Positions 8,272-59,897 of a DNA stretch of 59,897 nucleotides are shown piece by piece (the first letter of the stretch is position 1; the number at the start of each line of letters is the position of its first letter). Origin of the DNA: Candidatus Saccharimonadales bacterium (GTDB lineage: Bacteria > Patescibacteriota > Saccharimonadia > Saccharimonadales > CAIOMD01); NCBI GenBank assembly GCA_038245435.1, contig JBBRSL010000001.1, positions 1 to 59,897 of the forward strand. The letters are read 5' to 3'. The translations under genes were made by a program, and so were the position numbers. The notes under the pieces were generated by a model that ran no database searches, was not told the DNA's origin, and saw only the letters and a program-made list of their open reading frames with translations.

Positions 8272-9930
8272 ATGGAACAGCTACAAAATACTCTCATTAA
8301 AATCGTGAGCGATATATTTGATAAAGAAGACGTTAGTCTTGGGATAACAGTTCCTGAACCACAATTTGGTGATTTTACGAGCAATATTGCACTGAAATTG
8401 AGTAAAGAACTTGCAGCGAGTCCGCGAGAAGTAGCTTTAAAAATTAAGGATGCATTATCGCAAGAAAATTTTGAGTGGCTTAAAAGTGTCGAAATCGCGG
8501 GCCCAGGGTTCTTAAATTTTTCGCTGAGTGATTCAGCATTATGGCAACAAGCAACTGCGACGCCGCACCAAACTATGGATGGAACGCACGTCGTTCTAGA
8601 GTATTCATGCCCAAATGCCTTCAAAGAACTCCATGCTGGGCACCTTTACCAAACGTTAGTAGGTGATGTACTGGGTAATATGTTAGTTCGTGAAGGAGCA
8701 AAAGTTACAAGGACGAATTTCGGTGGTGATGTTGGATTGCACGTAGCGAAGAGTATGTGGGGCATACAGGATTTACTACAAGGTTTTGACATCGCAAAGC
8801 TTGAGGCAATGCCAAAAGATGAGCATGCAGCTTTTCTGAGCAAGGCCTATGTACATGGTGCAAAATCTTACGAAGATAATGACTTGGTGAAACTACAAGT
8901 CGAGGACTTCAATAAACAAGTTTATGGGCTCCACAGTAGTGAAAATGAGAACGATTTTTCAAAAGTGTATTGGATGTGCCGAGATTGGAGTTATGAGTAC
9001 TTTAAAGAATTTTATGAATCAATTGAAGTTGCTCCATTCGATCGTTTTTATCCTGAAAGCGAAACAGCGCCTGTCGGTCTTGGCCTAGTGCGCGGAGCAG
9101 TTGACGTGTTCGTGGAGTCAGATGGTGCCATTATTTTTAAAGGTGAAGACGTCGGTTTGCATACACGCGTATTTATTACGCGTGAGAATTTACCAACTTA
9201 CGAAACTAAAGATCTTGGCGTCATCAAGCTAGAGCACGACGAATATGATTTTGATAAGCGAGTATTAATTACCGGTAATGATCAAGCAGAATATATGAAA
9301 GTTGTCTTTGCGGCTGCAGCTCGAGTTATGCCCGATGTTGCTCAAAAAATGAAACATCTAACAAATGGCACGATTCGTTTTGGTGATGGTCAAAAAATGA
9401 GTTCGCGTTTAGGTAATGTGAGTCGTGCTATTGATGTTATTGATGGTGCCAGCCAATTAGTTGAGGCGGATAATGAAGACCTAAAAAAAGTACTTAGTCT
9501 TGGTGCGGTTAAGTATTCATTTTTAAAGCAGCGTTTTGGCGCCGATATTGCGTTTGACCTTGAAGAGTCGGTAAGCCTACATGGTAACAGTGGTCCATAC
9601 TTGCAGTACGCCTACGTGCGAGCACACAGTATTTTGCAAAAAGCTGAGGCCGTTGACGTAGAGCCAGAATTTACAGAAAGTGAAAGAGCTTTTGCGCAAA
9701 AAATAAGTCAATTCGAAGCTGTTATGGCAGATGCGGCTCGCGATTTAGCCCAACAAATTATATGCACTTATTTATATGAGCTTGCTCAAAGTTTTAATCG
9801 ATTTTATGAGGATAATAGAGTTATTGATGATGAACGACAAGCAGTCAGGCTCATGCTCGTTACGCGATACGCTCAAATCTTACATGACGGACTTGCAGTG
9901 CTTGGTATACGTGTACCAGAAAAAATGTAA
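8272..9930 (+). CDS. argS: arginine--tRNA ligase
   Basis: 552 aa. HAGHL (HIGH-like) and KMSSRLGN (KMSKS-like) motifs, a DALR-type C-terminal domain, and the protein ends in ...PEKM as ArgRS does. Confidence 0.9.
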   Translation: MEQLQNTLIKIVSDIFDKEDVSLGITVPEPQFGDFTSNIALKLSKELAASPREVALKIKDALSQENFEWLKSVEIAGPGFLNFSLSDSALWQQATATPHQTMDGTHVVLEYSCPNAFKELHAGHLYQTLVGDVLGNMLVREGAKVTRTNFGGDVGLHVAKSMWGIQDLLQGFDIAKLEAMPKDEHAAFLSKAYVHGAKSYEDNDLVKLQVEDFNKQVYGLHSSENENDFSKVYWMCRDWSYEYFKEFYESIEVAPFDRFYPESETAPVGLGLVRGAVDVFVESDGAIIFKGEDVGLHTRVFITRENLPTYETKDLGVIKLEHDEYDFDKRVLITGNDQAEYMKVVFAAAARVMPDVAQKMKHLTNGTIRFGDGQKMSSRLGNVSRAIDVIDGASQLVEADNEDLKKVLSLGAVKYSFLKQRFGADIAFDLEESVSLHGNSGPYLQYAYVRAHSILQKAEAVDVEPEFTESERAFAQKISQFEAVMADAARDLAQQIICTYLYELAQSFNRFYEDNRVIDDERQAVRLMLVTRYAQILHDGLAVLGIRVPEKM

Positions 9931-9995
9931 CGTATTTTGCGCAAACAGGGGCCGACGGTATACAATAACGCTAACGCTTCTAAAAAGGAACAATC

Positions 9996-11507
9996 GTGGC
10001 TAAAAATATACAATCTGCTTTAATCCTGCTCCCAAATCAGCTCTTTAATCCTGACTTTTTCCCAAAAGTTGATGTAGTAATTGTTGTTGAGGAGCCATTA
10101 CTGTTTGGTACTGACACCCAGTTTCCGCTGCCCATGCATAAACAAAAGTTAGTTTTGCATCGAGCAAGTGTGCGCCAATATATCGAGCAAGTTTTGTGGG
10201 CGCGCGACATTAATGTCGAATATATGGAGCTCGAAAGTGTTGAGTTTACGGCACAGCCGCTGGTACGTGCCCAGCATTTAGGGGCCGAACTTGTCTATAT
10301 GTTTGATCCTACTGATCACGCAATCGAACAACGCTATAAAAAAGCTCTCGAAACTGAAATCAAAACACCATTTGAGCTTCGTATCGAGCCAAGCCCGAGC
10401 TTTATGTTGCGACGTGGCGAAGTACAAGAATATTTCGGAGCCAAGATTAAGCATAAATTTGCGGATTTCTACCAGTGGCAACGTGAACGCTTTAATATTT
10501 TGATTGATGAAAACTATAAACCCGAGGGCGGTAAATGGAGTTACGATATAGAAAATCGTAAAAGTTTGCCAAAAGGGCATGTTGTACCAGGTTTTGCGAG
10601 TTTTGGCGCCAATAGCTATGTAGAAGACGCTAAAAAATGGGTTGAAAAGAACTTTAGTGATAATCCTGGTAGTGTTGAAAACTTTTTTTGGCCAACGAGC
10701 CATGAAGATGCAAAAGCTTGGTTGCAGGATTTTATCAAGACGCGTTTAACCGATTTTGGTCCTTTCGAAGATGCTATAGATGGCCAGGCAGTACTGCAGT
10801 ATCACAGTGGTTTATCAGCGCCTTTGAATATCGGATTACTCACCCCGAGCGAAGTTATTGAGGCGGTTGTTGAACATCACAAAAAGTCGCCCGTACCACT
10901 GCCAAGCCTCGAAGGCTTTATCCGTCAGGTTATTGGATGGCGTGAGTATGTACGTGGGCTGTATGTTACGCAACAGGTTTCGATGCGCAACGCCAACGAG
11001 CTCGGGCATAGCCGAAATCTTGGCCCGGCCTGGTGGAGCGCAGAAACTGGCATTCCGCCACTTGATGATGTCATCACAAAAGTGCAAGCACATGCATATG
11101 CGCATCACATAGAGCGATTAATGATAGTTGGTAACCTGATGCTACTCTGTGAAACCAAGCCAACAGAAGTTTACCGTTGGTATATGAGCCTGTTCATAGA
11201 TGCCTACGACTGGGTGATGGTGCCAAATGTCTATGGTATGAGCCAGTTCAGCGATTTAGGTAGTATGGTCACTAAGCCGTATATATCAGGTAGCAACTAT
11301 ATTTTAAAAATGAGCCACTACGAAAAGGGTGACTGGTGTGATGTTTGGGACGGCCTATTTTGGGACTTTGTCGAAAAACACTCGAGTCTACTTGCTAAAA
11401 ACCCGCGCACAAGCATGATGGTAAAGCAGTTAGGCAAGATTAACCCCGATAGGCGTCGTATCATTGCGTATCGGGCCCAAGACTTCTTAGCGTCTATTGC
11501 CCCTTAA
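9996..11507 (+). CDS. cryptochrome/photolyase-related protein (COG3046-type)
   Basis: GTG start follows AAAGGAA. 503 aa. The overall pattern (N-terminal alpha/beta domain, C-terminal FAD-binding helical domain with HHIERLM) matches the deoxyribodipyrimidine photolyase-related family. Confidence 0.7.
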   Translation: MAKNIQSALILLPNQLFNPDFFPKVDVVIVVEEPLLFGTDTQFPLPMHKQKLVLHRASVRQYIEQVLWARDINVEYMELESVEFTAQPLVRAQHLGAELVYMFDPTDHAIEQRYKKALETEIKTPFELRIEPSPSFMLRRGEVQEYFGAKIKHKFADFYQWQRERFNILIDENYKPEGGKWSYDIENRKSLPKGHVVPGFASFGANSYVEDAKKWVEKNFSDNPGSVENFFWPTSHEDAKAWLQDFIKTRLTDFGPFEDAIDGQAVLQYHSGLSAPLNIGLLTPSEVIEAVVEHHKKSPVPLPSLEGFIRQVIGWREYVRGLYVTQQVSMRNANELGHSRNLGPAWWSAETGIPPLDDVITKVQAHAYAHHIERLMIVGNLMLLCETKPTEVYRWYMSLFIDAYDWVMVPNVYGMSQFSDLGSMVTKPYISGSNYILKMSHYEKGDWCDVWDGLFWDFVEKHSSLLAKNPRTSMMVKQLGKINPDRRRIIAYRAQDFLASIAP

Positions 11508-12837: not shown

Positions 12838-13373
12838 TGGCTGACGTTAAACATGCCATAAGCACAAAGTTGTTATGGGTTGATTTAGAAATGACCGGCC
12901 TTGAGCCAGAAACAGATAGAATTTTAGAAGTTGCGGCCATTGTGACCGATTTCGATTTTAATGAGCTTGGTAGATTTGAGTCTGCTGTAAATCAAGATAT
13001 CAGTGTTTTAAATGCTATGAATGATTGGTGTAAAGAAACGCACAATGCAAGTGGACTTGTAAAAAGAGTAATGACGGCACCGAGCGAACAAAAGGTGGCT
13101 GCAGATTTTAAGGCGTTTATTAAAAAAAACTTTGAAGAGCCGGCAGTACTTGCCGGCAACAGCATCCAACAGGACAGACGCTTTATTCGAAAGTGGTGGC
13201 CCGAAGTTGAGAGCCTGCTGCATTACCGCCTAATGGATGTCAGTAGCTACAAAATTATTATGCAGGGCAAGTATGGTATTGAATTTGATAAAAAAGAATC
13301 GCATCGTGCGCTTGATGACATCGAAGAATCAATAGCCGAGCTCAAATTTTATTTACAAAATACTAGAACCTAA
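12837..13373 (+). CDS. orn: oligoribonuclease
   Basis: LLWVDLEMTGLEP (DEDD exo I), a later exo motif in the family order, and H-x4-D (HRALDDI). Length about 178 aa. Confidence 0.85.
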   Translation: MADVKHAISTKLLWVDLEMTGLEPETDRILEVAAIVTDFDFNELGRFESAVNQDISVLNAMNDWCKETHNASGLVKRVMTAPSEQKVAADFKAFIKKNFEEPAVLAGNSIQQDRRFIRKWWPEVESLLHYRLMDVSSYKIIMQGKYGIEFDKKESHRALDDIEESIAELKFYLQNTRT

Positions 13374-13400
13374 CACCGATAACCTGTAACCTATAAGCAA

Positions 13401-13718
13401 ATGACCCATAAAGAGATTGAAGAATATATTTTAAGCATGCCAAATGCACGACTTGATTATCCATTCGGCAAGGACGTTGCCGTATATAAGGTCGAAGATA
13501 AAATGTTCGCTCTCATTGCTGAGGGCACGGACCCAATTCGGCTCAGTCTTAAGTGTGACCCGCAACTAGCAAAACTTTTGCGAGACAAATATGAAACCGT
13601 CATGGAAGGTTACCACTTAAATAAAAAGCACTGGAACACGTTACTTTTAACAGGGCAGGTACCCTTAGACGAAGTACAAGATCTTATTCGGCATAGCTAC
13701 GAACTTGTTATAGCTTAG
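13401..13718 (+). CDS. MmcQ/YjbR family DNA-binding protein
   Basis: 105 aa. PFGKDVAVYKV..KMFALI and HLNKKHWNT match the YjbR family pattern. Confidence 0.6.
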   Translation: MTHKEIEEYILSMPNARLDYPFGKDVAVYKVEDKMFALIAEGTDPIRLSLKCDPQLAKLLRDKYETVMEGYHLNKKHWNTLLLTGQVPLDEVQDLIRHSYELVIA

Positions 13719-36824: not shown

Positions 36825-36888
36825 AAGAGTAAAGAGTAAAGAGTAAAGAGTAAAGAGTTTGCTGAGACTACTCTTAACTCTTTACTCT
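36825..36888 (+). repeat. tandem heptamer AAGAGTA x5 forming the 5' arm of a hairpin with a C/T/A-rich 3' arm
   Basis: aagagta aagagta aagagta aagagta aagagtt (36825-36859), loop tgctgagac, then tactcttaactctttactct (36869-36888). agagtaaagagt pairs perfectly with actctttactct. Confidence 0.85.
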
Positions 36889-36902
36889 ATACTGGTAGGT
36901 AT

Positions 36903-45159: not shown

Positions 45160-45738
45160 ATGACACAGACGAAACAAGAACTTCTTGATCAGATTAGGGC
45201 AGATATCCTTGAACAAGATATCTGCTCAGATTTGGCCAAGCAGGCCACGAACCTGGTTTTCGGAGACGGAAATCCAAATGCCGACATTGTGATTATTGGC
45301 GAAGCGCCCGGCAAGCGCGAAGATGAGCAGGGCGCTCCTTTTGTTGGGGCCAGCGGCAAGTTTTTAGCCGAAATGCTCGCCAGTATAAATATGCGGCGCG
45401 AGCAAGTGTACATTACCAATATCGTTAAGTATCGGCCGCCAAACAATCGCGACCCATTACCGGACGAAAAAGCAGCTTTTTTACCATTTTTAGAGCGCCA
45501 GCTCGATGTTATTCAACCACTATTAGTTGTGACATTAGGCCGGCACTCTATGAACTGCTTTTTACCGGGCTTACAAATAAGTGAGGTTCATGGAGAGCCT
45601 AAACGAAAAGGCGACAGGGTATTTCTACCACTTTACCATCCAGCCGCAGCTCTCTATAACGGAGGTTTGCGACAGACATTGGTTGAGGATTTTCAGAACA
45701 TACCCCAGACCCTCCAATTAATTAGAAAAAGAAAGTAA
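45160..45738 (+). CDS. uracil-DNA glycosylase, family 4
   Basis: IIGEAPGKREDEQGAPFVGASGKFL and the HPAAAL motif. Confidence 0.85.
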   Translation: MTQTKQELLDQIRADILEQDICSDLAKQATNLVFGDGNPNADIVIIGEAPGKREDEQGAPFVGASGKFLAEMLASINMRREQVYITNIVKYRPPNNRDPLPDEKAAFLPFLERQLDVIQPLLVVTLGRHSMNCFLPGLQISEVHGEPKRKGDRVFLPLYHPAAALYNGGLRQTLVEDFQNIPQTLQLIRKRK

Positions 45739-48439: not shown

Positions 48440-50665
48440 ATGGCTAAGAAGAAAAAGACAACCAAGAAAAAGAAAGTACAAAAAGAAACTCCTGAAATGA
48501 AAACGGGGAGTTATTTTTGGCGTCAAGTAACGGCGTTTATTATGATTGTGCTCGCGCTATTTGTGCTTATCGGCGGCTTTGGTTTGGGAGGTACGTTCCC
48601 AGTACATCTATTTAAAACGAGTGCTTGGTTTGTAGGCTATAGTGCTTTTTTGGTGCCTTTTGTACTTATATTTTTGGCAATTGCTAAGCTCAAGCACGAA
48701 GAGTACCAAATTCCGTTTTCAAAGCTTGTTACCAGCCTTATATTTTTGGCAATGCTAGCTGGCATGTTGCACGTGGTGCTTGACGCCGGCAATGCAGCCG
48801 ATTACGCAAAAGCAGGGCAGTACGGTGGCCAAGTCGGCAATGGGTTACGTAACTTTAGTTTGATGTTCTTGAGCCAAACGACCGCTTTTATTAGCTTTTT
48901 TGTACTGGGTTGGATTGCCTTTATGTTCATGTTTGGCCTATCACCAAAGCGTATGGGTAAAAGCTTTATGAGTATGTTCCAGCGTGAGCAACGCGAACCA
49001 GACACTGATTTACGAGAACTTAAAGCTAAGGGCGAAACCGACAAAGGTTTTCAATTACATGAAGGTGTGCCAATTGAGCACCATACGGCAGCCGAAAAGG
49101 CAGCTAAGCTATCAACTATCAAAAACACCGCTACCAAGCTCAGCGTAGCCGAAGATCACGCCGCGCTCACCACAGTCACCGATGTTGACTGGAAGTTCCC
49201 AGGTGTTGAATTGCTTGATCAAAAGCAAGATAAAGCCGACCCTGGCAATATCAAAGAAAACGCCGATATGATTAAAGATACACTGGCTAACTTTAATATT
49301 GATGTCGAAATGGAAGGTGCCAATGTAGGCCCGCGCGTCACGCAATATACTCTTCGTCCACCTGCCGGAGTTAAGATGAACAAAATTGCTGGACTGGCAG
49401 ATAACATCGCACTTGATTTAGCTGCTCAATCAATTCGTATCGAAGCACCTATCCCCGGTAAACGAGCCGTTGGTGTCGAAGTGCCAAACCTCAAGTCGGC
49501 AACGGTACGCCTTGCCGGAATCCTCAATAGTAAAGAGTGGAAAGAGCAATCATCGACACTTGGTTTCGCGATTGGTAAAGATATTGCGGGTGACCCGGTT
49601 GTCGCTCAGCTCGATAAAATGCCGCATATGCTCGTTGCTGGTCAAACTAACTCAGGTAAGTCAGTGATGATTAATACTTTGCTTACGAGTTTGCTTTATC
49701 GCAATAGCCCGTCAGACATGAAACTGATTTTGGTTGACCCAAAACAGGTTGAACTTACGCCGTATAACGATATTCCGCACCTGCTCACGCCAGTGATTAC
49801 TGAACCCGAAAAGTGTATTAGCGCACTCAAATGGGCTGTTGCCGAAATGGAGCGCCGCCTTAAGGCATTCGCGGGCGAGAAGAAGCGCAATATTTCTGAG
49901 TATAACGCGATTGCTGAGCTCGAAAGCATGCCCTATATCGTGATCGTGATTGATGAGCTTGCAGACCTTATGATGATGGCCGCCAAAGACGTTGAATCAT
50001 TAATTGTACGTTTGGCGCAAAAAGCTCGTGCAGCTGGTATCCACTTAGTATTGGCAACGCAGAGCCCACGTGTCGATGTTATTACGGGTCTTATTAAGGC
50101 CAACGTCCCGGCTAAGATTTCATTTACCGTATCTAACCAAATTGAATCACGCATTATTATTGACCAGCCAGGCAGTGAAAAGCTGCTCGGTATGGGTGAT
50201 ATGTTGCTGTTAACGCCTGCTATGGGCAAGCCTAAGCGCGTACAAGCCGCTTACATTAGCGATGAGGAAACGTTGCGGGTTACAGACTTTTTACGAGCGC
50301 AGAGGGGCCCACAATACGATGATGAAGTTGTGAGCATGCCGGTGGTTCTTAATGGTCGTGGGGGTATTGTCGTAGAGCACACTAGCCATGATGATGCCGA
50401 TGATGACATGTGGGAAGATGCTGTACGCGTAGTGATTGAAAACCAAAAAGCTAGTACTAGTCTGTTGCAACGTCGCTTACGTATTGGCTATGGCCGTGCC
50501 AGTCGTATTATGGACATCATGGAAGAAAAGGGTATCATTGGCCAGGCTGACGGCCAGCGCCCACGTGAAGTGCTGGTAAGTAGCATGAGTGATGTCTTTG
50601 GGAGCACCGAACCGACTCAAATTGAAGTCAGCGACGACCCGCGCGATGAATATCTCACGAGGTAG
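48440..50665 (+). CDS. ftsK: DNA translocase FtsK
   Basis: N-terminal TM helices, motor domain with Walker A GQTNSGKS and Walker B IVIVIDELADL, and a gamma winged-helix domain (STSLLQRRLRIGYGRASRIMD). Confidence 0.95.
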   Translation: MAKKKKTTKKKKVQKETPEMKTGSYFWRQVTAFIMIVLALFVLIGGFGLGGTFPVHLFKTSAWFVGYSAFLVPFVLIFLAIAKLKHEEYQIPFSKLVTSLIFLAMLAGMLHVVLDAGNAADYAKAGQYGGQVGNGLRNFSLMFLSQTTAFISFFVLGWIAFMFMFGLSPKRMGKSFMSMFQREQREPDTDLRELKAKGETDKGFQLHEGVPIEHHTAAEKAAKLSTIKNTATKLSVAEDHAALTTVTDVDWKFPGVELLDQKQDKADPGNIKENADMIKDTLANFNIDVEMEGANVGPRVTQYTLRPPAGVKMNKIAGLADNIALDLAAQSIRIEAPIPGKRAVGVEVPNLKSATVRLAGILNSKEWKEQSSTLGFAIGKDIAGDPVVAQLDKMPHMLVAGQTNSGKSVMINTLLTSLLYRNSPSDMKLILVDPKQVELTPYNDIPHLLTPVITEPEKCISALKWAVAEMERRLKAFAGEKKRNISEYNAIAELESMPYIVIVIDELADLMMMAAKDVESLIVRLAQKARAAGIHLVLATQSPRVDVITGLIKANVPAKISFTVSNQIESRIIIDQPGSEKLLGMGDMLLLTPAMGKPKRVQAAYISDEETLRVTDFLRAQRGPQYDDEVVSMPVVLNGRGGIVVEHTSHDDADDDMWEDAVRVVIENQKASTSLLQRRLRIGYGRASRIMDIMEEKGIIGQADGQRPREVLVSSMSDVFGSTEPTQIEVSDDPRDEYLTR

Positions 50666-50738
50666 ACATTGGATGCTAGACGTTGGATGTTGGAGCAGGC
50701 GCAGTTTTTTAGTATCTAGTATCTGACGTCTAACATCT
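50663..50738 (+). repeat. long imperfect hairpin with heptad/14-nt word structure starting at the ftsK stop codon
   Basis: 5' arm tagacattggatgc tagacgttggatgt tgga and 3' arm tagtatc tagtatc tgacgtc taacatc ta. Aligning gatgctagacgttggatgttgga against the 3' arm gives 23 positions with one true mismatch and five G.U pairs that exist only in the plus-strand RNA. Confidence 0.75.
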
Positions 50739-50740
50739 AA

Positions 50741-52598: not shown

Positions 52599-52608
52599 TA
52601 GAACAGAA

Positions 52609-52678
52609 CTTGGGAATAGGGCTCAGGTAATGGGTAATGGGGTTCGCCCCAGTTCCTAGTTCCCAACCACTAACCCCT
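52609..52678 (+). repeat. G-rich / C-rich arm hairpin with UUCG loop in the ssb-rpsR spacer
   Basis: cttgggaatagggctcaggtaatgggtaatgggg-ttcg-ccccagttcctagttcccaaccactaacccc. Words repeat every 7 nt (ggtaatg ggtaatg ; tcctagt tcccaac). The 5' arm has almost no C and the 3' arm almost no G. Confidence 0.7.
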
Positions 52679-52704
52679 AAATTCAACAAAGGAGAATTTA
52701 AACT

Positions 52705-52914: not shown

Positions 52915-52984
52915 TTTGAATAACGAATATTGAAGAACGAATAATGACGTTCATTATTCAATCTTCAATATTCTAAATTTCAAA
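52915..52984 (+). repeat. about 70-nt near-perfect palindrome in the rpsR-efp spacer
   Basis: The core is gaatattgaaga-ac-gaataatga-cgt-tcattattc-aa-tcttcaatattc, with a 9-bp and a 12-bp perfect stem. An outer tttgaa/ttcaaa pair reaches the efp RBS. The sequence parses into 7-nt words. Confidence 0.85.
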
Positions 52985-53639: not shown

Positions 53640-53789
53640 ATGACATTTGGCGAACAAAGAGTATTTAGTGTTACTGATGAATTAGAGCTTGGAACAGACG
53701 TTGTAGCTGCAATTGAATCACAAGATGCTATGGAGCGATTCCAGGCTGTTGCTGAAGCGGCCGGCGACCTGGCTATTCGCGCAGCTTAA
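53640..53789 (+). CDS. 49-aa acidic peptide (not in ORF track)
   Basis: AAGGA lies 8 nt upstream. Sequence MTFGEQRVFSVTDELELGTDVVAAIESQDAMERFQAVAEAAGDLAIRAA. Its stop lies 7 nt before the tlyA ATG. Confidence 0.4.
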   Translation: MTFGEQRVFSVTDELELGTDVVAAIESQDAMERFQAVAEAAGDLAIRAA

Positions 53790-53796
53790 GAGGTTT

Positions 53797-54582
53797 ATGC
53801 AAAAATTACGGCTAGACTATTTTGTAAATAAAATTGGGCTCGCCGAAACACGCAGTCAAGCTGAAAACTATATAAAACTTGGCTATATTACCGTTGATGG
53901 CCAAGTTGTTACAAAACCTGGTTATTTTGTGCGCTCTGATGCTCAAATACGTAATATTCAAAGCCAAAAGTACGTGGGCAGGGCAGGCTTAAAGCTGGCG
54001 AGTGTTGCAGAGGCGCTCAAGCTCAAGCTCAAGTTTAAAGGTAAAATAGTGCTTGATGTCGGCAGTAGTACTGGTGGTTTTACCGATTATGCGCTGCAAA
54101 ATGGGGCTACAAAAGTTTTTGCAGTTGATGTAGGCACAAATCAGCTGCACCCAAGCTTGCACGGTAATCCAAAGATAGAACTTCATGAAAAAACCAACAT
54201 CTTAGATGTTGGGAGTTTGGAGTTAGGAGCTAGAACCGATAAGCGCCAACTCCCAACTCTGAGCTCCCAAATTCTAATTCCTGTGCCCGATATCATTGTT
54301 ATCGATGTGAGCTTTGTGAGCTTACGAGAATTATTACCCCATATTGCAAGCTTAAGTGGGCCAAAAACACTGATTGTTGCCATGGTTAAGCCACAATTTG
54401 AGGCTGGAGCGGCCACTAAACACAAGGGCGTGATTAAAAATGATTCGGTGCGCCGCGATATTATGAAAGATTTTGAACTGTGGGCTAAGCAACACTTTAC
54501 GATCCTGGATAAAGCCGATTCAGACGTAACTGGTGCCAAAGGTAACCGCGAGCGCTTTTACCTCTTAAAAATTATAAAGTAA
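53797..54582 (+). CDS. tlyA: TlyA-family rRNA (cytidine-2'-O)-methyltransferase carrying a 21-aa in-frame insertion
   Basis: ATG at 53797 follows AGAGG. N-terminal S4 domain (RLDYFVNKIGLAETRSQAENYIKLGYITVDG), the SAM motif VLDVGSSTGGFTD and DVSFVSL. The upstream ORF extension from 53713 is unsupported. Confidence 0.8.
   Translation: MQKLRLDYFVNKIGLAETRSQAENYIKLGYITVDGQVVTKPGYFVRSDAQIRNIQSQKYVGRAGLKLASVAEALKLKLKFKGKIVLDVGSSTGGFTDYALQNGATKVFAVDVGTNQLHPSLHGNPKIELHEKTNILDVGSLELGARTDKRQLPTLSSQILIPVPDIIVIDVSFVSLRELLPHIASLSGPKTLIVAMVKPQFEAGAATKHKGVIKNDSVRRDIMKDFELWAKQHFTILDKADSDVTGAKGNRERFYLLKIIK
54208..54270 (+). repeat. 63-nt imperfect palindrome inside the tlyA coding sequence
   Basis: Positions 54209-54231 pair with 54270-54248 as 18 Watson-Crick pairs, 3 G.U pairs and 2 mismatches. 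The arms are heptad words (ttgggag tttggag ttaggag / ccaactc ccaactc tgagctc ccaa). It encodes VGSLELGARTDKRQLPTLSSQ. Confidence 0.8.
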
Positions 54583-54719: not shown

Positions 54720-56234
54720 GTGAACCGTTTCACCAAAAGGGTGGTAGTGGGCCTTGTGTTCGCTGCGCTCTTGTTTGGGTCTGGTGCAGCTTTGGCTGCT
54801 CCGGTTCAGGCTGCGACGTACGACCCGTCATTCGTGACGGCTAGCTACAGCAACCCTGTGTGTCTAAGCGGGGTACTCGACAACGACTCGACCGTCACGA
54901 GCTTCAACGCTCCTGGCGGGTTCGAGTCCATCACGTTCAGTCTTGACGGTGTAGCTCTCCCGGGCTACCCGTACGCACTCGCCACGGGTACGGAAGTTCG
55001 TTTCGACGATGTTGTCCCTGCCAATACGCTTGTGGGCAACCACACGCTGACGGTCGACAACTTCGGGTTCACGCTGGCGACCTACCCGTTCACGCTCGCT
55101 GAGCCCTGTGTGGCGGTCAGCCCGTCTGACTTCACGGCCAACCTCGACACTCAGTTCACTAGTCCTGACGGTTCGTTCGGACAGGTCCTTGAGCTCGGTA
55201 ACTTCAGTGAGGCCTCGCGCCAAGCTGTAGTCTGGGTGAACGATGTCCTGGTCTGGGCGCCTGTCTTGGCGGTGGGAGACTTCCCGACGTTCAAGCTGTC
55301 CATCCCGACCTGTCAGGCTTACAGCGTGAAGGTGAGTTTCGGGTTCCCCGATCTCGCTCTCGACACTGCTCAGCCCGCCTACGGGTGCAACACAGTCGAC
55401 GCCGCGAACTTCGTGGTTACGCCGAAGTCACCGGTTTGCTCAGTAGCCGTTCCGACACAGGAAACCTCCGTCACAAGTGCAGACCCTGTCTCTCGCTTTG
55501 TGAAGGTGACCTACGGCAACGGCGGTTACGAGTACACCGCATCTGGCACGATGGCGCAAGGTGAGATGCGTTCGTTCGTGGGGCAACTCCCCCCGGGCGA
55601 GGCGTATCGCATCTTCGTCTACGTTGATGACGAGCTTGTGTATAACCAGCTCCAGCCAGCGTTCAGTTGCGGCACGCCTCCAGTGCGACTGACTGGTCCG
55701 AGTATCTCGGGCAGGGCACAGGTTGGGTACGTCCTGACCTGCAACGTGTCGTACTCCGGTACGGCTCCGGTCATGGCTGCGTACAGGTGGTACCTCAACG
55801 GTGTGTTGACGGCGGGTTCATCCCGCACGCTCACGCTCACCGCTACCCACTACAACAAGCGGCTTGCTTGCGCATCCAGCGCCAGTAACGGCTTCGGTAG
55901 TGCACCATCCGCAACCAGCGCAGCCAGTGCTGTTGTGGTCCTCGGTTCGGCACTCAAGATCGTCGGTACCTACTACCCGAAGGTCACTGGCACAGTCCGG
56001 GTTGGCAAGACGGTCAAGGCGTATGTCGGCAAGTGGACTCCCGCTCCGACAAAGTACTTGTATCAGTGGTACAAGTACAGTGGCGGCAGGTGGGTGGCCA
56101 TCAAGTACGCGACCAAGTACTACTACGTCATTCCTCGGGCTCTGAAGGGCTACAAGATCGCTGTTCGCGTGACGGCTCTTAAGCCGGGCTATGCGAGCGG
56201 CGTTCGACTTTCTGCTGGCGTCCACGTTGGCTGA
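54720..56234 (+). CDS. secreted beta-rich protein with two C-terminal Ig-like repeats, GC-rich foreign gene
   Basis: GTG follows GAAGGGGGA. Signal peptide MNRFTKRVVVGLVFAALLFGSGAALAAPVQA-AT. There are Cys-delimited modules and two copies of the P.I.G...VG..L....G.W.....Y.W...G pattern (about 55695-55935 and 55971-56220). G/C dominates third codon positions. Confidence 0.65.
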   Translation: MNRFTKRVVVGLVFAALLFGSGAALAAPVQAATYDPSFVTASYSNPVCLSGVLDNDSTVTSFNAPGGFESITFSLDGVALPGYPYALATGTEVRFDDVVPANTLVGNHTLTVDNFGFTLATYPFTLAEPCVAVSPSDFTANLDTQFTSPDGSFGQVLELGNFSEASRQAVVWVNDVLVWAPVLAVGDFPTFKLSIPTCQAYSVKVSFGFPDLALDTAQPAYGCNTVDAANFVVTPKSPVCSVAVPTQETSVTSADPVSRFVKVTYGNGGYEYTASGTMAQGEMRSFVGQLPPGEAYRIFVYVDDELVYNQLQPAFSCGTPPVRLTGPSISGRAQVGYVLTCNVSYSGTAPVMAAYRWYLNGVLTAGSSRTLTLTATHYNKRLACASSASNGFGSAPSATSAASAVVVLGSALKIVGTYYPKVTGTVRVGKTVKAYVGKWTPAPTKYLYQWYKYSGGRWVAIKYATKYYYVIPRALKGYKIAVRVTALKPGYASGVRLSAGVHVG

Positions 56235-56260
56235 GTAGTCCTCTGATGTAGAGCGAATGA

Positions 56261-56328
56261 GCCCTAGTGTGGCGCAGAGTGTGGTCTCCGGTAATCCAAC
56301 CGTAGCTCTCTCTGCGCCCACTAGGGCG
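56261..56328 (+). repeat. 18-19 bp GC-rich inverted repeat at the right edge of island 2
   Basis: gccctagtgtggcgcagag (56261-56279) and ctctgcgcccactagggc (56311-56328) give 18 bp with one bulge and a loop of about 30 nt, followed by ccaactttt. Confidence 0.7.
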
Positions 56329-58871: not shown

Positions 58872-58900
58872 TTTACATAAAGTATTATTTGTGGTATAAA
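58872..58900 (+). promoter_or_regulatory. promoter TTTACA-17-TATAAA with TG extension, facing GC-rich island 3
   Basis: Hexamers at 58872-58877 and 58895-58900, with TGG immediately before the -10. Confidence 0.5.
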
Positions 58901-58940
58901 TAACGAGTTACGCTTTGTAAGTGGAGCGTAAAGTACAGAG

Positions 58941-58966
58941 CACCCGGAAATACCGGGTGTTTGTTT
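58941..58966 (+). terminator. terminator-like hairpin inside the leader of the island 3 gene (or terminator of the orphan block)
   Basis: cacccgg-aaata-ccgggtg followed by tttgttt. It is preceded by a second hairpin, ttacgct-ttgtaagtgg-agcgtaa (58913-58936). Confidence 0.55.
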
Positions 58967-58989
58967 CCATCGGAAGGATGTGAAGCCCC

Positions 58990-59897
58990 GTGCAGGGCAG
59001 CATCAAGAGAGAGAACCGGCGCTTGACGCCGGCTCGGCTGATCAGCGCGCTCCTCGGGGCCCTGCTGGTCATGACTGGAGGTGCGATGGTTATCGCAGCT
59101 CCGGCCAGTGCAACGACGCTCGCGTCGTCGTTCGTGCGTGACAGCGCGAACTGCAACGCAGGTGTTCTGACCATTGCAGGTGCAACTTCGAGCTCGACGC
59201 TCGACGCTGTCATCTCCTGGCAGTACAACTCGAACACCGTGAGCTCCGAGTACCTCGGAACAGGCGGTTCTGGCTCCAGCTGGAGCCACATGTTCGATGT
59301 CTCTGCCGACATGAAGGTGTTCCCGGTGACTGCTTTCAACATGACCGTCAAGGTCTTCGATGAGGGCGGCAACCCCGTGCTCGACGAGGTCGTTTCGGTC
59401 GCCGGCTGTGGCACGCCGCCGACTGTCGACTACGCCGCCGTGACCGGTTACGCGCCGTTCTCGAGTGACGCCAATCACCCTGGCTACTGGGGAGCCGACT
59501 GTGTCAAGGTCGACAACCCGGGCGGGAGCACCTACGTGCTGCCGGCCGGTACCTACAGCAAGGTGATCGTCAAGGCGGGTGCCAACGAGCAGGGCAACTA
59601 TGCCAACACGATCTTCGCCGCGCCTCCCAAGGCCGGACAGACTGTGTGGGCAGACAGCAACGGGAACGGTGTATTCGACGAAAGCGACAAGACGATTTCA
59701 CACGTGATCATGTGTGCAGCCGAGTCCTCGCCCACGCCGACGCCGACGGAGACCACTCCGACCCCGACGCCGACAGTGACGACGCCCACGCCGACGCCGA
59801 CGGAGACCACTCCGACCCCGACGCCGACAGTGACGACGCCCACGCCGACGCCGACGGAGACCACTCCGACCCCGACGCCGACAGTGACGACGCCCAC
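58990..59897 (+). CDS. secreted protein with Thr/Pro-rich tandem repeats, GC-rich foreign gene, 3' end outside window (not in ORF track)
   Basis: My own translation from GTG 58990 reads VQGSIKRENRRLTPARLISALLGALLVMTGGAMVIAAPASA-TTLASSFVRDSANCNAG...VAGCGTPPTVDY...HPGYWGADCVKVDNPGG...SSPTPTPTETTPTPTPTVTT repeated. The frame stays open to the window end. The listed minus-strand ORFs here are antisense artefacts. Confidence 0.7.
   Translation, partial: MQGSIKRENRRLTPARLISALLGALLVMTGGAMVIAAPASATTLASSFVRDSANCNAGVLTIAGATSSSTLDAVISWQYNSNTVSSEYLGTGGSGSSWSHMFDVSADMKVFPVTAFNMTVKVFDEGGNPVLDEVVSVAGCGTPPTVDYAAVTGYAPFSSDANHPGYWGADCVKVDNPGGSTYVLPAGTYSKVIVKAGANEQGNYANTIFAAPPKAGQTVWADSNGNGVFDESDKTISHVIMCAAESSPTPTPTETTPTPTPTVTTPTPTPTETTPTPTPTVTTPTPTPTETTPTPTPTVTTP
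59731..59897 (+). repeat. perfect 54-bp tandem repeat (at least 3 copies, continues past window)
   Basis: The unit cccacgccgacgccgacggagaccactccgaccccgacgccgacagtgacgacg starts at 59731, 59785, 59839 and 59893. Copies are identical and in frame, encoding PTPTPTETTPTPTPTVTT. Confidence 0.9.

Follow-up and report, generated by a model that had tools for sequence, protein, structure and literature searches.

A palindromic pair of heptad-repeat arrays in frame within tlyA of a Saccharimonadales bacterium, and similar hairpins in intergenic spacers

Heptameric repeats have been described in several bacteria, with GGGAATC as the unit in Xanthomonas, GGGGAYT in Nostoc/Anabaena and the STRR heptanucleotides in Calothrix (Rehm et al., 2015; PMC4692102). 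In Xanthomonas and Nostoc, these repeats are dispersed, strongly enriched in non-coding DNA and under-represented in coding regions, and they lie at most about 50 bp from stop codons or overlap them. Xanthomonas carries 70-75 convergent, inverted-repeat-forming pairs per genome. At the same intergenic site, both the length and the sequence of the repeats vary widely among close relatives, and the same article relays the idea that heptamers slip easily owing to the footprint of the polymerase (Rehm et al., 2015; PMC4692102). The present study deals with a stretch of 59,897 nt from a Candidatus Saccharimonadales bacterium (contig JBBRSL010000001.1, positions 1 to 59,897; hereafter the window), in which the tlyA gene contains, in frame, a palindromic segment of 63 nt. 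The inverted pairs of heptameric repeats of Xanthomonas and Nostoc are the closest phenomenon on record. It appears rather probable that the tlyA segment belongs to a dispersed class of inverted heptameric-repeat arrays, as a copy that is in frame and translated; it would be shaped by slippage, strand switching and recombination, and housed in a permissive loop of the protein.

Short palindromes of other kinds are also known in bacteria. The Rickettsia palindromic elements (RPE), said to have been described by Ogata and colleagues in 2000, are reportedly about 100-150 bp long, share a family consensus and occur in frame in conserved genes, with non-coding copies as well. REP/BIME sequences and MITEs (miniature inverted-repeat transposable elements, such as Correia and ERIC) are short intergenic palindromes, variable between strains and often found just 3' of genes. 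REP sequences have a conserved sequence (e.g. 5' GTAG) that is recognised by the RAYT transposase, and MITEs are characterised by terminal inverted repeats together with target-site duplications and the existence of a parent insertion sequence. A narrow full-text literature search yielded nothing on such elements in Saccharibacteria or in other bacteria of the candidate phyla radiation (CPR).

From its sequence, the host open reading frame (ORF) can be assigned to the TlyA-type rRNA 2'-O-methyltransferases, with an N-terminal S4 domain followed by a class I FtsJ-type domain. Its Pfam matches are to S4 (1.7e-14) and FtsJ (2.3e-32), its sequence matches in the PDB are Mycobacterium TlyA (7s0s_B) and the homologues 3hp7, 3opn and 5ks2, and its structural model aligns with 7s0s_B with a Foldseek TM-score of 0.74. 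The names of the TlyA homologues place the organism in Saccharimonadales, within Patescibacteria/CPR. The features of the locus are as follows, the heptad arrays being those detected by Tandem Repeats Finder (TRF).

53797-54582, + strand: tlyA coding sequence, host of the insert (261 aa; S4 domain and FtsJ-type 2'-O-methyltransferase domain).
54202-54277, unstranded: full imperfect palindrome, 76 nt (arms 54202-54229 and 54250-54277, loop 54230-54249).
54208-54270, + strand: 63-nt, 21-codon segment, which reads VGSLELGARTDKRQLPTLSSQ, in frame with the tlyA start at 53797.
54208-54233, + strand: G-rich heptad array of the 5' arm, GTTGGGA GTTTGGA GTTAGGA GCTAG (TRF GTTAGGA x3.7, period 7).
54246-54270, + strand: C-rich heptad array of the 3' arm, CCAACTC CCAACTC TGAGCTC CCAA (TRF CCAACTC x3.6, period 7).
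54196-54210, unstranded: NILDV codons, AACATCT-T-AGATGTT, in which a C-type heptad and a G-type heptad form a 7+1+7 mini-palindrome.

In the original prediction, positions 54209-54231 paired with 54270-54248 through 18 Watson-Crick pairs, 3 G.U pairs and 2 mismatches. This count is exact on recount by hand, the G.U pairs being T54216-G54263, T54218-G54261 and G54219-T54260 and the mismatches A54225-C54254 and C54230-A54249, and the length of 63 nt, or 21 codons in frame in tlyA, agrees with the sequence and the ORF. The palindrome is real but longer than had been noted, since a repeat finder gives arms of 28 nt each, 79% complementary, around a 20-nt loop. The RNA fold of 54200-54280 (81 nt) has an energy of -34.3 kcal/mol on the + strand (z = -6.3) and of -38.8 kcal/mol on the - strand (z = -6.7), with 0/200 shuffles as good in either case. 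Because both strands fold strongly, the G.U pairs are no evidence for a sense-strand-specific structure, and the claim that they work only in the sense RNA cannot be upheld. The window contains five hairpins of this strength, against a mean of 0.03 in 40 first-order Markov resamplings.

The arms owe their character to tandem heptamers, a defining feature on which the first description had only touched when it spoke of heptad words. Besides the period of 7 returned by TRF, the lag-7 autocorrelation of the tlyA arms is 0.70, compared with 0.15-0.35 at other lags, a value reached in 0/10,000 permutations. The units are TTGGGAG and CTCCCAA in the window, whereas most relatives' tlyA inserts are built from TTGGACG and CGTCCAA, which encode LDVGRWT in the first arm and RPTSNVQ in the second. 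Peptides such as LDVRLRTLDVG...NVQRPTSNVQ recur for this reason; QLPTLSSQILIPVPDIIVIDVSFVSLR is an example of an insert-derived peptide. The second (3') arms are often perfect repeats (AACGTCC x3.9 in L186, TCCAACG x3.7 in L187, CCAACTC x3 in L082, TCCAACA x7.7 in L189; loci of relatives bear L numbers, proteins P numbers), a pattern typical of slippage.

The tlyA units are free of stop codons in every frame, TTGGGAG reading LGVGSWE and CTCCCAA reading LPTPNSQ. As 7 and 3 have no common factor, a heptad array yields the same 7-aa periodic peptide in all frames. Such stop-free, frame-indifferent units would explain how heptad DNA can sit inside a gene. A unit TTAGACG would put TAG in frame every third unit; the coding copies avoid this, and L188 has TCAGACG at that place. 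In the window, a search for exact or near-exact copies of the tlyA arms found none besides the element itself, and the arm pattern with at most 3 mismatches occurs once. The 9-mer words of the tlyA arm are counted 18 times in the window against 12 by chance, a marginal excess.

The place of the insert within TlyA can be described from the homologues. The stretch from ELHEKT to DVSF measures 16-17 aa in 83 of the 119 closest motif-bearing homologues, against 36 aa in the window TlyA, and 76 GTDB loci give the same picture of a usually short loop facing the long one of the window. In alignments to solved TlyA structures, 16-17 window residues are left unmatched between the '...EKTN' and '...DVSF' strands, and the PDB proteins have no inserted stretch. 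Removing the segment had been said to leave a spacing typical of the family. This stands in so far as the canonical loop has 16-17 aa instead of 36; the net length gap to the nearest insert-free relatives (L083, L084, L086; DNA alignment) is nevertheless 60 nt and not 63. The flanks differ as well, with 'NILDV...ILIPV' in the insert allele and 'DIRDF...VPSVK' in the insert-free one, so that there is no clean insertion boundary against insert-free alleles. NILD, at first regarded as a conserved family block, belongs to the insert-type allele, the family consensus at this position being DIRDF, and the NILDV mini-palindrome forms the left edge of that allele.

An AlphaFold2 model of the window TlyA (mean predicted local distance difference test, pLDDT, 84.5; predicted TM-score, pTM, 0.77) places the insert between beta3 (127-130) and beta4 (166-170). 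The tip of the insert, residues 144-156, has a pLDDT below 50, and it is flanked by short putative strands, DSSP assigning beta residues at 138-140 and 159-161. Thus, in a model whose confidence is low in this part, the insert would be a protruding surface loop of the methyltransferase domain. Unrelated inserts of 24-75 aa occur at exactly this loop in many lineages, which indicates that the beta3-beta4 loop tolerates insertions. A separate 'DIFDF' clade of TlyA, seen in the metagenome loci L087, L088, L101, L106, L114 and L154, has, in the same loop, inserts of 38-75 aa that are unrelated and contain many charged residues. A metagenome DNA-pattern scan with GARYTNYAYGARMARACNRAYATHYTNGA, which was aimed at 'HEKTNILD' alleles, gave about 12 useful loci; most of its matches belong to the 'DIFDF' clade because YTN also encodes Phe.

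Two further observations concern tlyA and its surroundings. At window 54015-54033, (GCTCAA) x3 adds an extra 'KL' (ALKLKLKF), unique among relatives; by its sequence, this hexamer repeat is a second slippage event in the gene. Directly 5' of tlyA, a conserved small ORF that matches nothing in Pfam and encodes 49-56 aa is present in all close relatives (window 53640-53790; L081 1748-1897; L083 7529-7678).

A homologous insert is found in relatives at 85-93% protein identity (P0001-P0004; DNA L081, L082, L190, L185) and down to about 60% identity (P0016-P0023, P0028, P0034, P0037 and others; DNA L014, L020, L073, L125, L126, L127, L142, L149 and L186-L189). Heptad arms are present in the tlyA inserts of the window, L081, L082, L190, L185-L189, L014, L073, L126 and L125. 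Every insert-bearing tlyA examined is in frame and has no stop codon. Hence, the alignment of orthologs supports an in-frame palindromic insertion as first proposed, but not its restriction to one lineage or strain. On this evidence, the insert is to be viewed as old and inherited, neither strain-specific nor recently acquired.

The shared inserts all begin with 'NILDV' or a close variant, and nearly all are then followed by 'DVSFVSL', whereas insert-free genes have 'DVSFISL'. When the loop is masked, a neighbour-joining tree of TlyA intersperses genes that have the insert with genes that lack it, P0002 being sister to P0006, P0008 and P0011, and P0016 to P0026. Between the sisters L125 and L191, and likewise between L082 and L192, the DNA is mostly about 76-98% identical except in a patch of about 100-170 nt around and downstream of the insert, where identity falls to about 62-76%; many of the differences there are synonymous. 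Within this patch, L082 is nearest to other insert alleles and not to its sister. This comparison of flank and patch was made in fixed windows, and only the result for L082 is usable, upstream indels (the extra KL of the window, indels in L125/L191) spoiling the others. The higher synonymous divergence in the linked patch points to recombination rather than to selection on residues. It is suggestive, though not proven, that the central segment of tlyA would have been exchanged as an allele by homologous recombination.

Besides the tlyA element, the window contains four further heptad-periodic hairpins, all in spacers, the five copies having five different words, and one single array.

50663-50740, unstranded: heptad-array hairpin TTGGATG CTAGACG TTGGATG ... 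TCTGACG TCTAACA TCTAA, beginning on the ftsK stop codon.
52606-52690, unstranded: heptad-array hairpin GGGAATA GGGCTCA GGTAATG GGTAATG ... CCTAGTT CCCAACC ACTAACC, in the ssb-rpsR spacer.
52916-52973, unstranded: heptad-periodic hairpin GAATATT GAAGAAC GAATAAT / TCATTAT TCAATCT TCAATAT, in the rpsR-efp spacer (lag-7 0.75).
36825-36893, unstranded: heptad-array hairpin AAGAGTA x4.9 / TACTCTT x3.6, between a divergent 78-aa ORF and fpg.
13363-13396, unstranded: single heptad array, CTATAAC-type, 4.9 copies, no hairpin, spanning a stop codon and a spacer (TRF).

The hairpin at 50663-50740 is followed by a classical terminator, and its heptad word is of the type found in most relatives' tlyA inserts. 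As had been pointed out, TTGGGA and TCCCAA are found again in the hairpin of the ssb-rpsR spacer. This spacer measures 107 nt in the window and 98 nt in L082, where it has an xAGGGTx x4 hairpin; in L081, L083 and L086 it is down to about 21 nt. Downstream of ftsK, L083 lacks a heptad hairpin, and the rpsR-efp spacer of L081 and L086 contains a different heptad hairpin, with xxxxGAG units. In L189, further copies of the tlyA word (ATCCAAC/ATCTAAC) follow pnp and ftsK and lie in the ssb-rpsR spacer and at 13022; among them are single arrays and non-complementary pairs, and the copies have no loop or flank in common. In L126, the tlyA word occurs again in the rpsR-efp spacer.

The Saccharimonadales loci, 2.06 Mb in all, contain 64 arrays with a period of 7 and 3.5 copies or more, against 12, 10, 5 and 2 for periods 4, 5, 8 and 10. 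Although most of the sequence is coding, 49/78 arrays lie outside long ORFs. Inverted pairs of heptad arrays number 16 in the loci, with four of them in the window. Lag-7 periodicity is not general across all the long hairpins of 1.4 Mb of loci; it is chiefly in the window's clade that strong ones with heptads are met, with scattered cases in L001, L012, L014, L073, L125, L126, L188 and L189. Two other in-frame single arrays are found in L189, CTCTCCA x4.4 in ychF (peptide EWRVESGEWR) and TTCGAAT x4.7 in a UDG gene, the two lying at 13588-13618 and 2232-2272.

Other host genes were sought with a synthetic peptide (LDVGRWT x3 ... RPTSNVQ x3) searched against 5.8 billion proteins. This search returned 153 short hypothetical proteins of 39-93 aa, with no Pfam domain and from unrelated bacteria, which are probably miscalled intergenic arrays, hence uninformative on the colonisation of other genes. 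(TTGGACG)n arrays are called as short 'hypothetical proteins' with LDVGRWT repeats in unrelated bacteria, Glaesserella parasuis and Cellvibrionaceae among them (P0121-P0240); such calls look like a general annotation artefact of heptamer repeats.

Compared with the Xanthomonas/Nostoc type, the arms are likewise made of 7-nt tandem units, and the complementary arrays are close together and convergent. The class is also dispersed, mainly intergenic, near stop codons and variable, the tlyA copy being a coding exception. The words differ, however, and most of those found here (TTGGGAG, TTGGACG, AAGAGTA, GAATATT) would be unable to form a G-quadruplex. A quadruplex would call for GGG in each of at least four units: only one unit of the tlyA 5' arm has GGG, and TTGGACG, AAGAGTA and GAATATT have none, the GGG/GGT units of the ssb-rpsR spacer coming closest. 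In addition, the host is here a reduced-genome CPR bacterium, and one in-frame copy lies in a conserved housekeeping gene, where it is kept across the clade.

The likeness to RPE that had been put forward holds for a palindrome set in frame in a conserved coding gene, translated and tolerated at the surface of the protein. It is a likeness of design, the hosts being unrelated (Saccharimonadales and Alphaproteobacteria). Contrary to RPE, the element is 63-76 nt long and built of heptads, and the window copies share a design but no consensus; the tandem-heptamer arms place its nearest relatives among the Xanthomonas/Nostoc pairs. As with REP/BIME and MITEs, short variable intergenic palindromes are observed, often just downstream of genes. 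The copies share no consensus such as that of REP; from MITEs they differ in that there is neither a target-site duplication nor a clean boundary at tlyA and that the nine ORFs scanned gave no significant transposase match. Finally, dyad-symmetric coding DNA that is translated is also seen in PARCELs; those are 25-residue tandem protein repeats of membrane or surface ORFs, whereas tlyA has a single hairpin of 7-nt units in an enzyme.

The preferred reading, a translated copy of a dispersed class of inverted heptad arrays, may be detailed as follows. Each arm is a short tandem array of a 7-nt unit, the second being the inverted complement of the first, and most arrays occupy short gaps between genes, on stop codons or directly behind them. 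Replication slippage would add, delete and homogenise heptads within an arm, and occasional hairpin-templated strand switching would copy one arm onto the other. Homologous recombination between lineages would carry the whole insert-bearing segment as an allele. The tlyA copy would persist thanks to heptads that are stop-free in all frames and to the insertion tolerance of the beta3-beta4 surface loop. The hairpin and the extra peptide are taken to be neutral or nearly so.

Several observations weigh against this scheme. From TTGGACG/CGTCCAA to TTGGGAG/CTCCCAA, two complementary substitutions per unit are seen in all units of both arms. Such a coordinated switch of word goes beyond slippage alone and therefore needs arm-to-arm templating or replacement by another element. 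That one word stands at no fewer than five loci of L189 in the space of 20 kb suggests that it is copied by some mechanism or recognised by a protein. The G-rich arm comes first in 11 of the 12 inverted pairs that could be scored; since either strand shows this order, it belongs to the DNA palindrome itself. The insert is strictly linked to 'NILDV' upstream and to 'DVSFVSL' downstream, which could reflect structural co-adaptation, in which case the peptide would matter. Lastly, the census of copies in this genome covers 60 kb, and is to that extent incomplete.

It may alternatively be considered that a discrete non-autonomous mobile element, similar to a MITE or an RPE, was moved into tlyA and into the spacers by a transposase or HUH-type enzyme encoded elsewhere. 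The hairpins are indeed dispersed and their presence differs between close relatives, L189 has one heptad word at several loci, and heptads are open in all frames, as RPEs are reported to be. Moreover, the rpsR-efp spacer of L126 contains a unit of about 150 nt whose heptad-array ends resemble terminal inverted repeats. Such a mechanism is nonetheless unlikely. No direct repeat or target-site duplication flanks the tlyA element, the boundary with insert-free alleles is not clean, and the copies have no common loop or flank, some loci being single-armed or having non-complementary arms. One would also expect something other than five different words in five window copies, and the tlyA copy is old and inherited instead of recently inserted. 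In the nine ORFs scanned, which make up a minor part of the window, the sole transposase-family match is a weak, sub-threshold zinc ribbon on Fpg. Of the original view of a dispersed element, dispersal is retained, with similar spacer hairpins in the window and in relatives, but nothing indicates discrete movement.

A more active role of the heptads themselves may also be imagined. The palindromes would then be an actively propagating class in Saccharimonadales, with a dedicated protein that would recognise or write their units; they would spread between lineages by recombination or gene conversion, and in tlyA the copy would be an allele, domesticated or driven, through which an enzyme that modifies the ribosome is altered. 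If true, the existence of the dedicated protein would explain one word at many loci as well as the G-rich arm coming first, and units that are stop-free in every frame could invade coding genes. We give this proposal little credence.

We would also consider it quite unlikely that the approximately 20 extra residues are an adaptive protein loop, for instance in contact with a ribosome feature specific to CPR, of which the palindrome would be a trace of origin. The recurrence of unrelated inserts at exactly this loop, the frame that is always kept, the short strands modelled at the loop base and the nearby residue changes to which the insert is tightly tied (NILDV, FVSL, RELL) would fit such a role. 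However, about 70% of the homologues have the short loop, sisters of insert-bearing genes included, and model confidence is low there. The peptide is poorly conserved and tracks the heptad DNA, not a peptide motif, and in the linked patch divergence is raised at synonymous sites too.

If a nucleic-acid structure in tlyA were functional, whether a ribosome-pausing mRNA element, a site for RNase III or another RNase, an antisense terminator or a DNA cruciform, the complementarity of the arms would be under selection. The fold is very stable on both strands, and both arms changed together between the two heptad types. In an alignment-free test, own arm pairs have a mean complementarity of 12.2 against 10.7 for cross pairs (permutation p = 0.03), self thus being slightly above cross. 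There is also a terminator-like site on the - strand at the NILDV mini-palindrome (54212-54194; consensus match only). Yet the hairpin is wholly missing from close relatives, and pairing has decayed in several lineages (L082 has -11.4 on the + strand, with z = -0.1; L186 and L127 are also weak). The better-folding strand is inconsistent between lineages, the - strand energy being far below that of the + strand in L186, L189 and L082, and the reverse in L014, L073 and L126; G-to-A decay in the first arm favours the - strand, and C-to-T decay in the second favours the + strand. The 5' arm of L126 scores 25 with the 3' arm of L186 and 11 with its own, and in L188 the 3' arm has turned into CCAAAGT throughout, a change that the 5' arm did not follow. 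On the + strand, the sequence after 54277 is TTCCTGTGCCC, with no T-run as would be expected of an intrinsic terminator, and a terminator scan did not flag it. A search of Rfam 15 gave no family at the gathering score, the best matches being generic hairpins (mir-240, 25.9 bits against a threshold of 67.5 bits). The arms thus appear to show no consistent compensation and the evidence for selection on the hairpin is weak; a functional structure of this kind is highly improbable.

Chance or an assembly artefact is ruled out, as the insert recurs in independent JGI, Logan, ENA and GTDB assemblies, and an intein, an intron or a translational bypass was dropped, the element being too short, always in frame and stop-free.

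Genomes of CPR/Patescibacteria are usually described as small and repeat-poor, and here a class of 7-nt-repeat palindromes is encountered in Saccharimonadales. The heptad arrays vary among close relatives, mark gene ends and enter proteins (tlyA, and as single arrays ychF and a UDG gene of one relative). They would offer a natural case of simple-repeat DNA lengthening protein loops, as well as possible hypervariable markers for strain typing of uncultured Saccharibacteria. Annotators should be aware that gene calling turns heptad arrays into small ORFs that are spurious. That tlyA alleles with and without the insert are interleaved hints that homologous recombination is frequent; Saccharibacteria are a group now known as naturally transformable. 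The data imply no effect on TlyA function or on capreomycin-type susceptibility.

Some other features of the window and of related loci may be mentioned. Islands of 54-58% GC lie at 1-2100, 54720-56300 and 58885-59897, the GC content being 42-47% elsewhere, and may be foreign DNA. The first contains an ORF with a weak GmrSD_N match, the second an ORF of 504 aa that follows tlyA directly, has a hydrophobic stretch at its N terminus and lacks any Pfam match, and the third ends in 21-nt repeats of the CGACGCC type (59738-59882). An imperfect palindrome with 27-nt arms (45181-45243) is located at the start of a UDG-family gene, and is found at the same place in L008, L024, L060, L070 and L076; it is either forced by the protein sequence or a conserved site. 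A GIY-YIG gene just 5' of tlyA in L189 lies between copies of another repeated hairpin (9390-10005; GTCATCCTGAACTCGTTTCAGGATCC and variants), and a hairpin of this type is present again in an unrelated Saccharibacteria contig (L011 13424-13507). Perfect palindromes are also observed at contig ends, in L030 (1-191, 94 nt per arm) and L040 (12472-12592, 59 nt per arm), where they are probably fold-back assembly artefacts.

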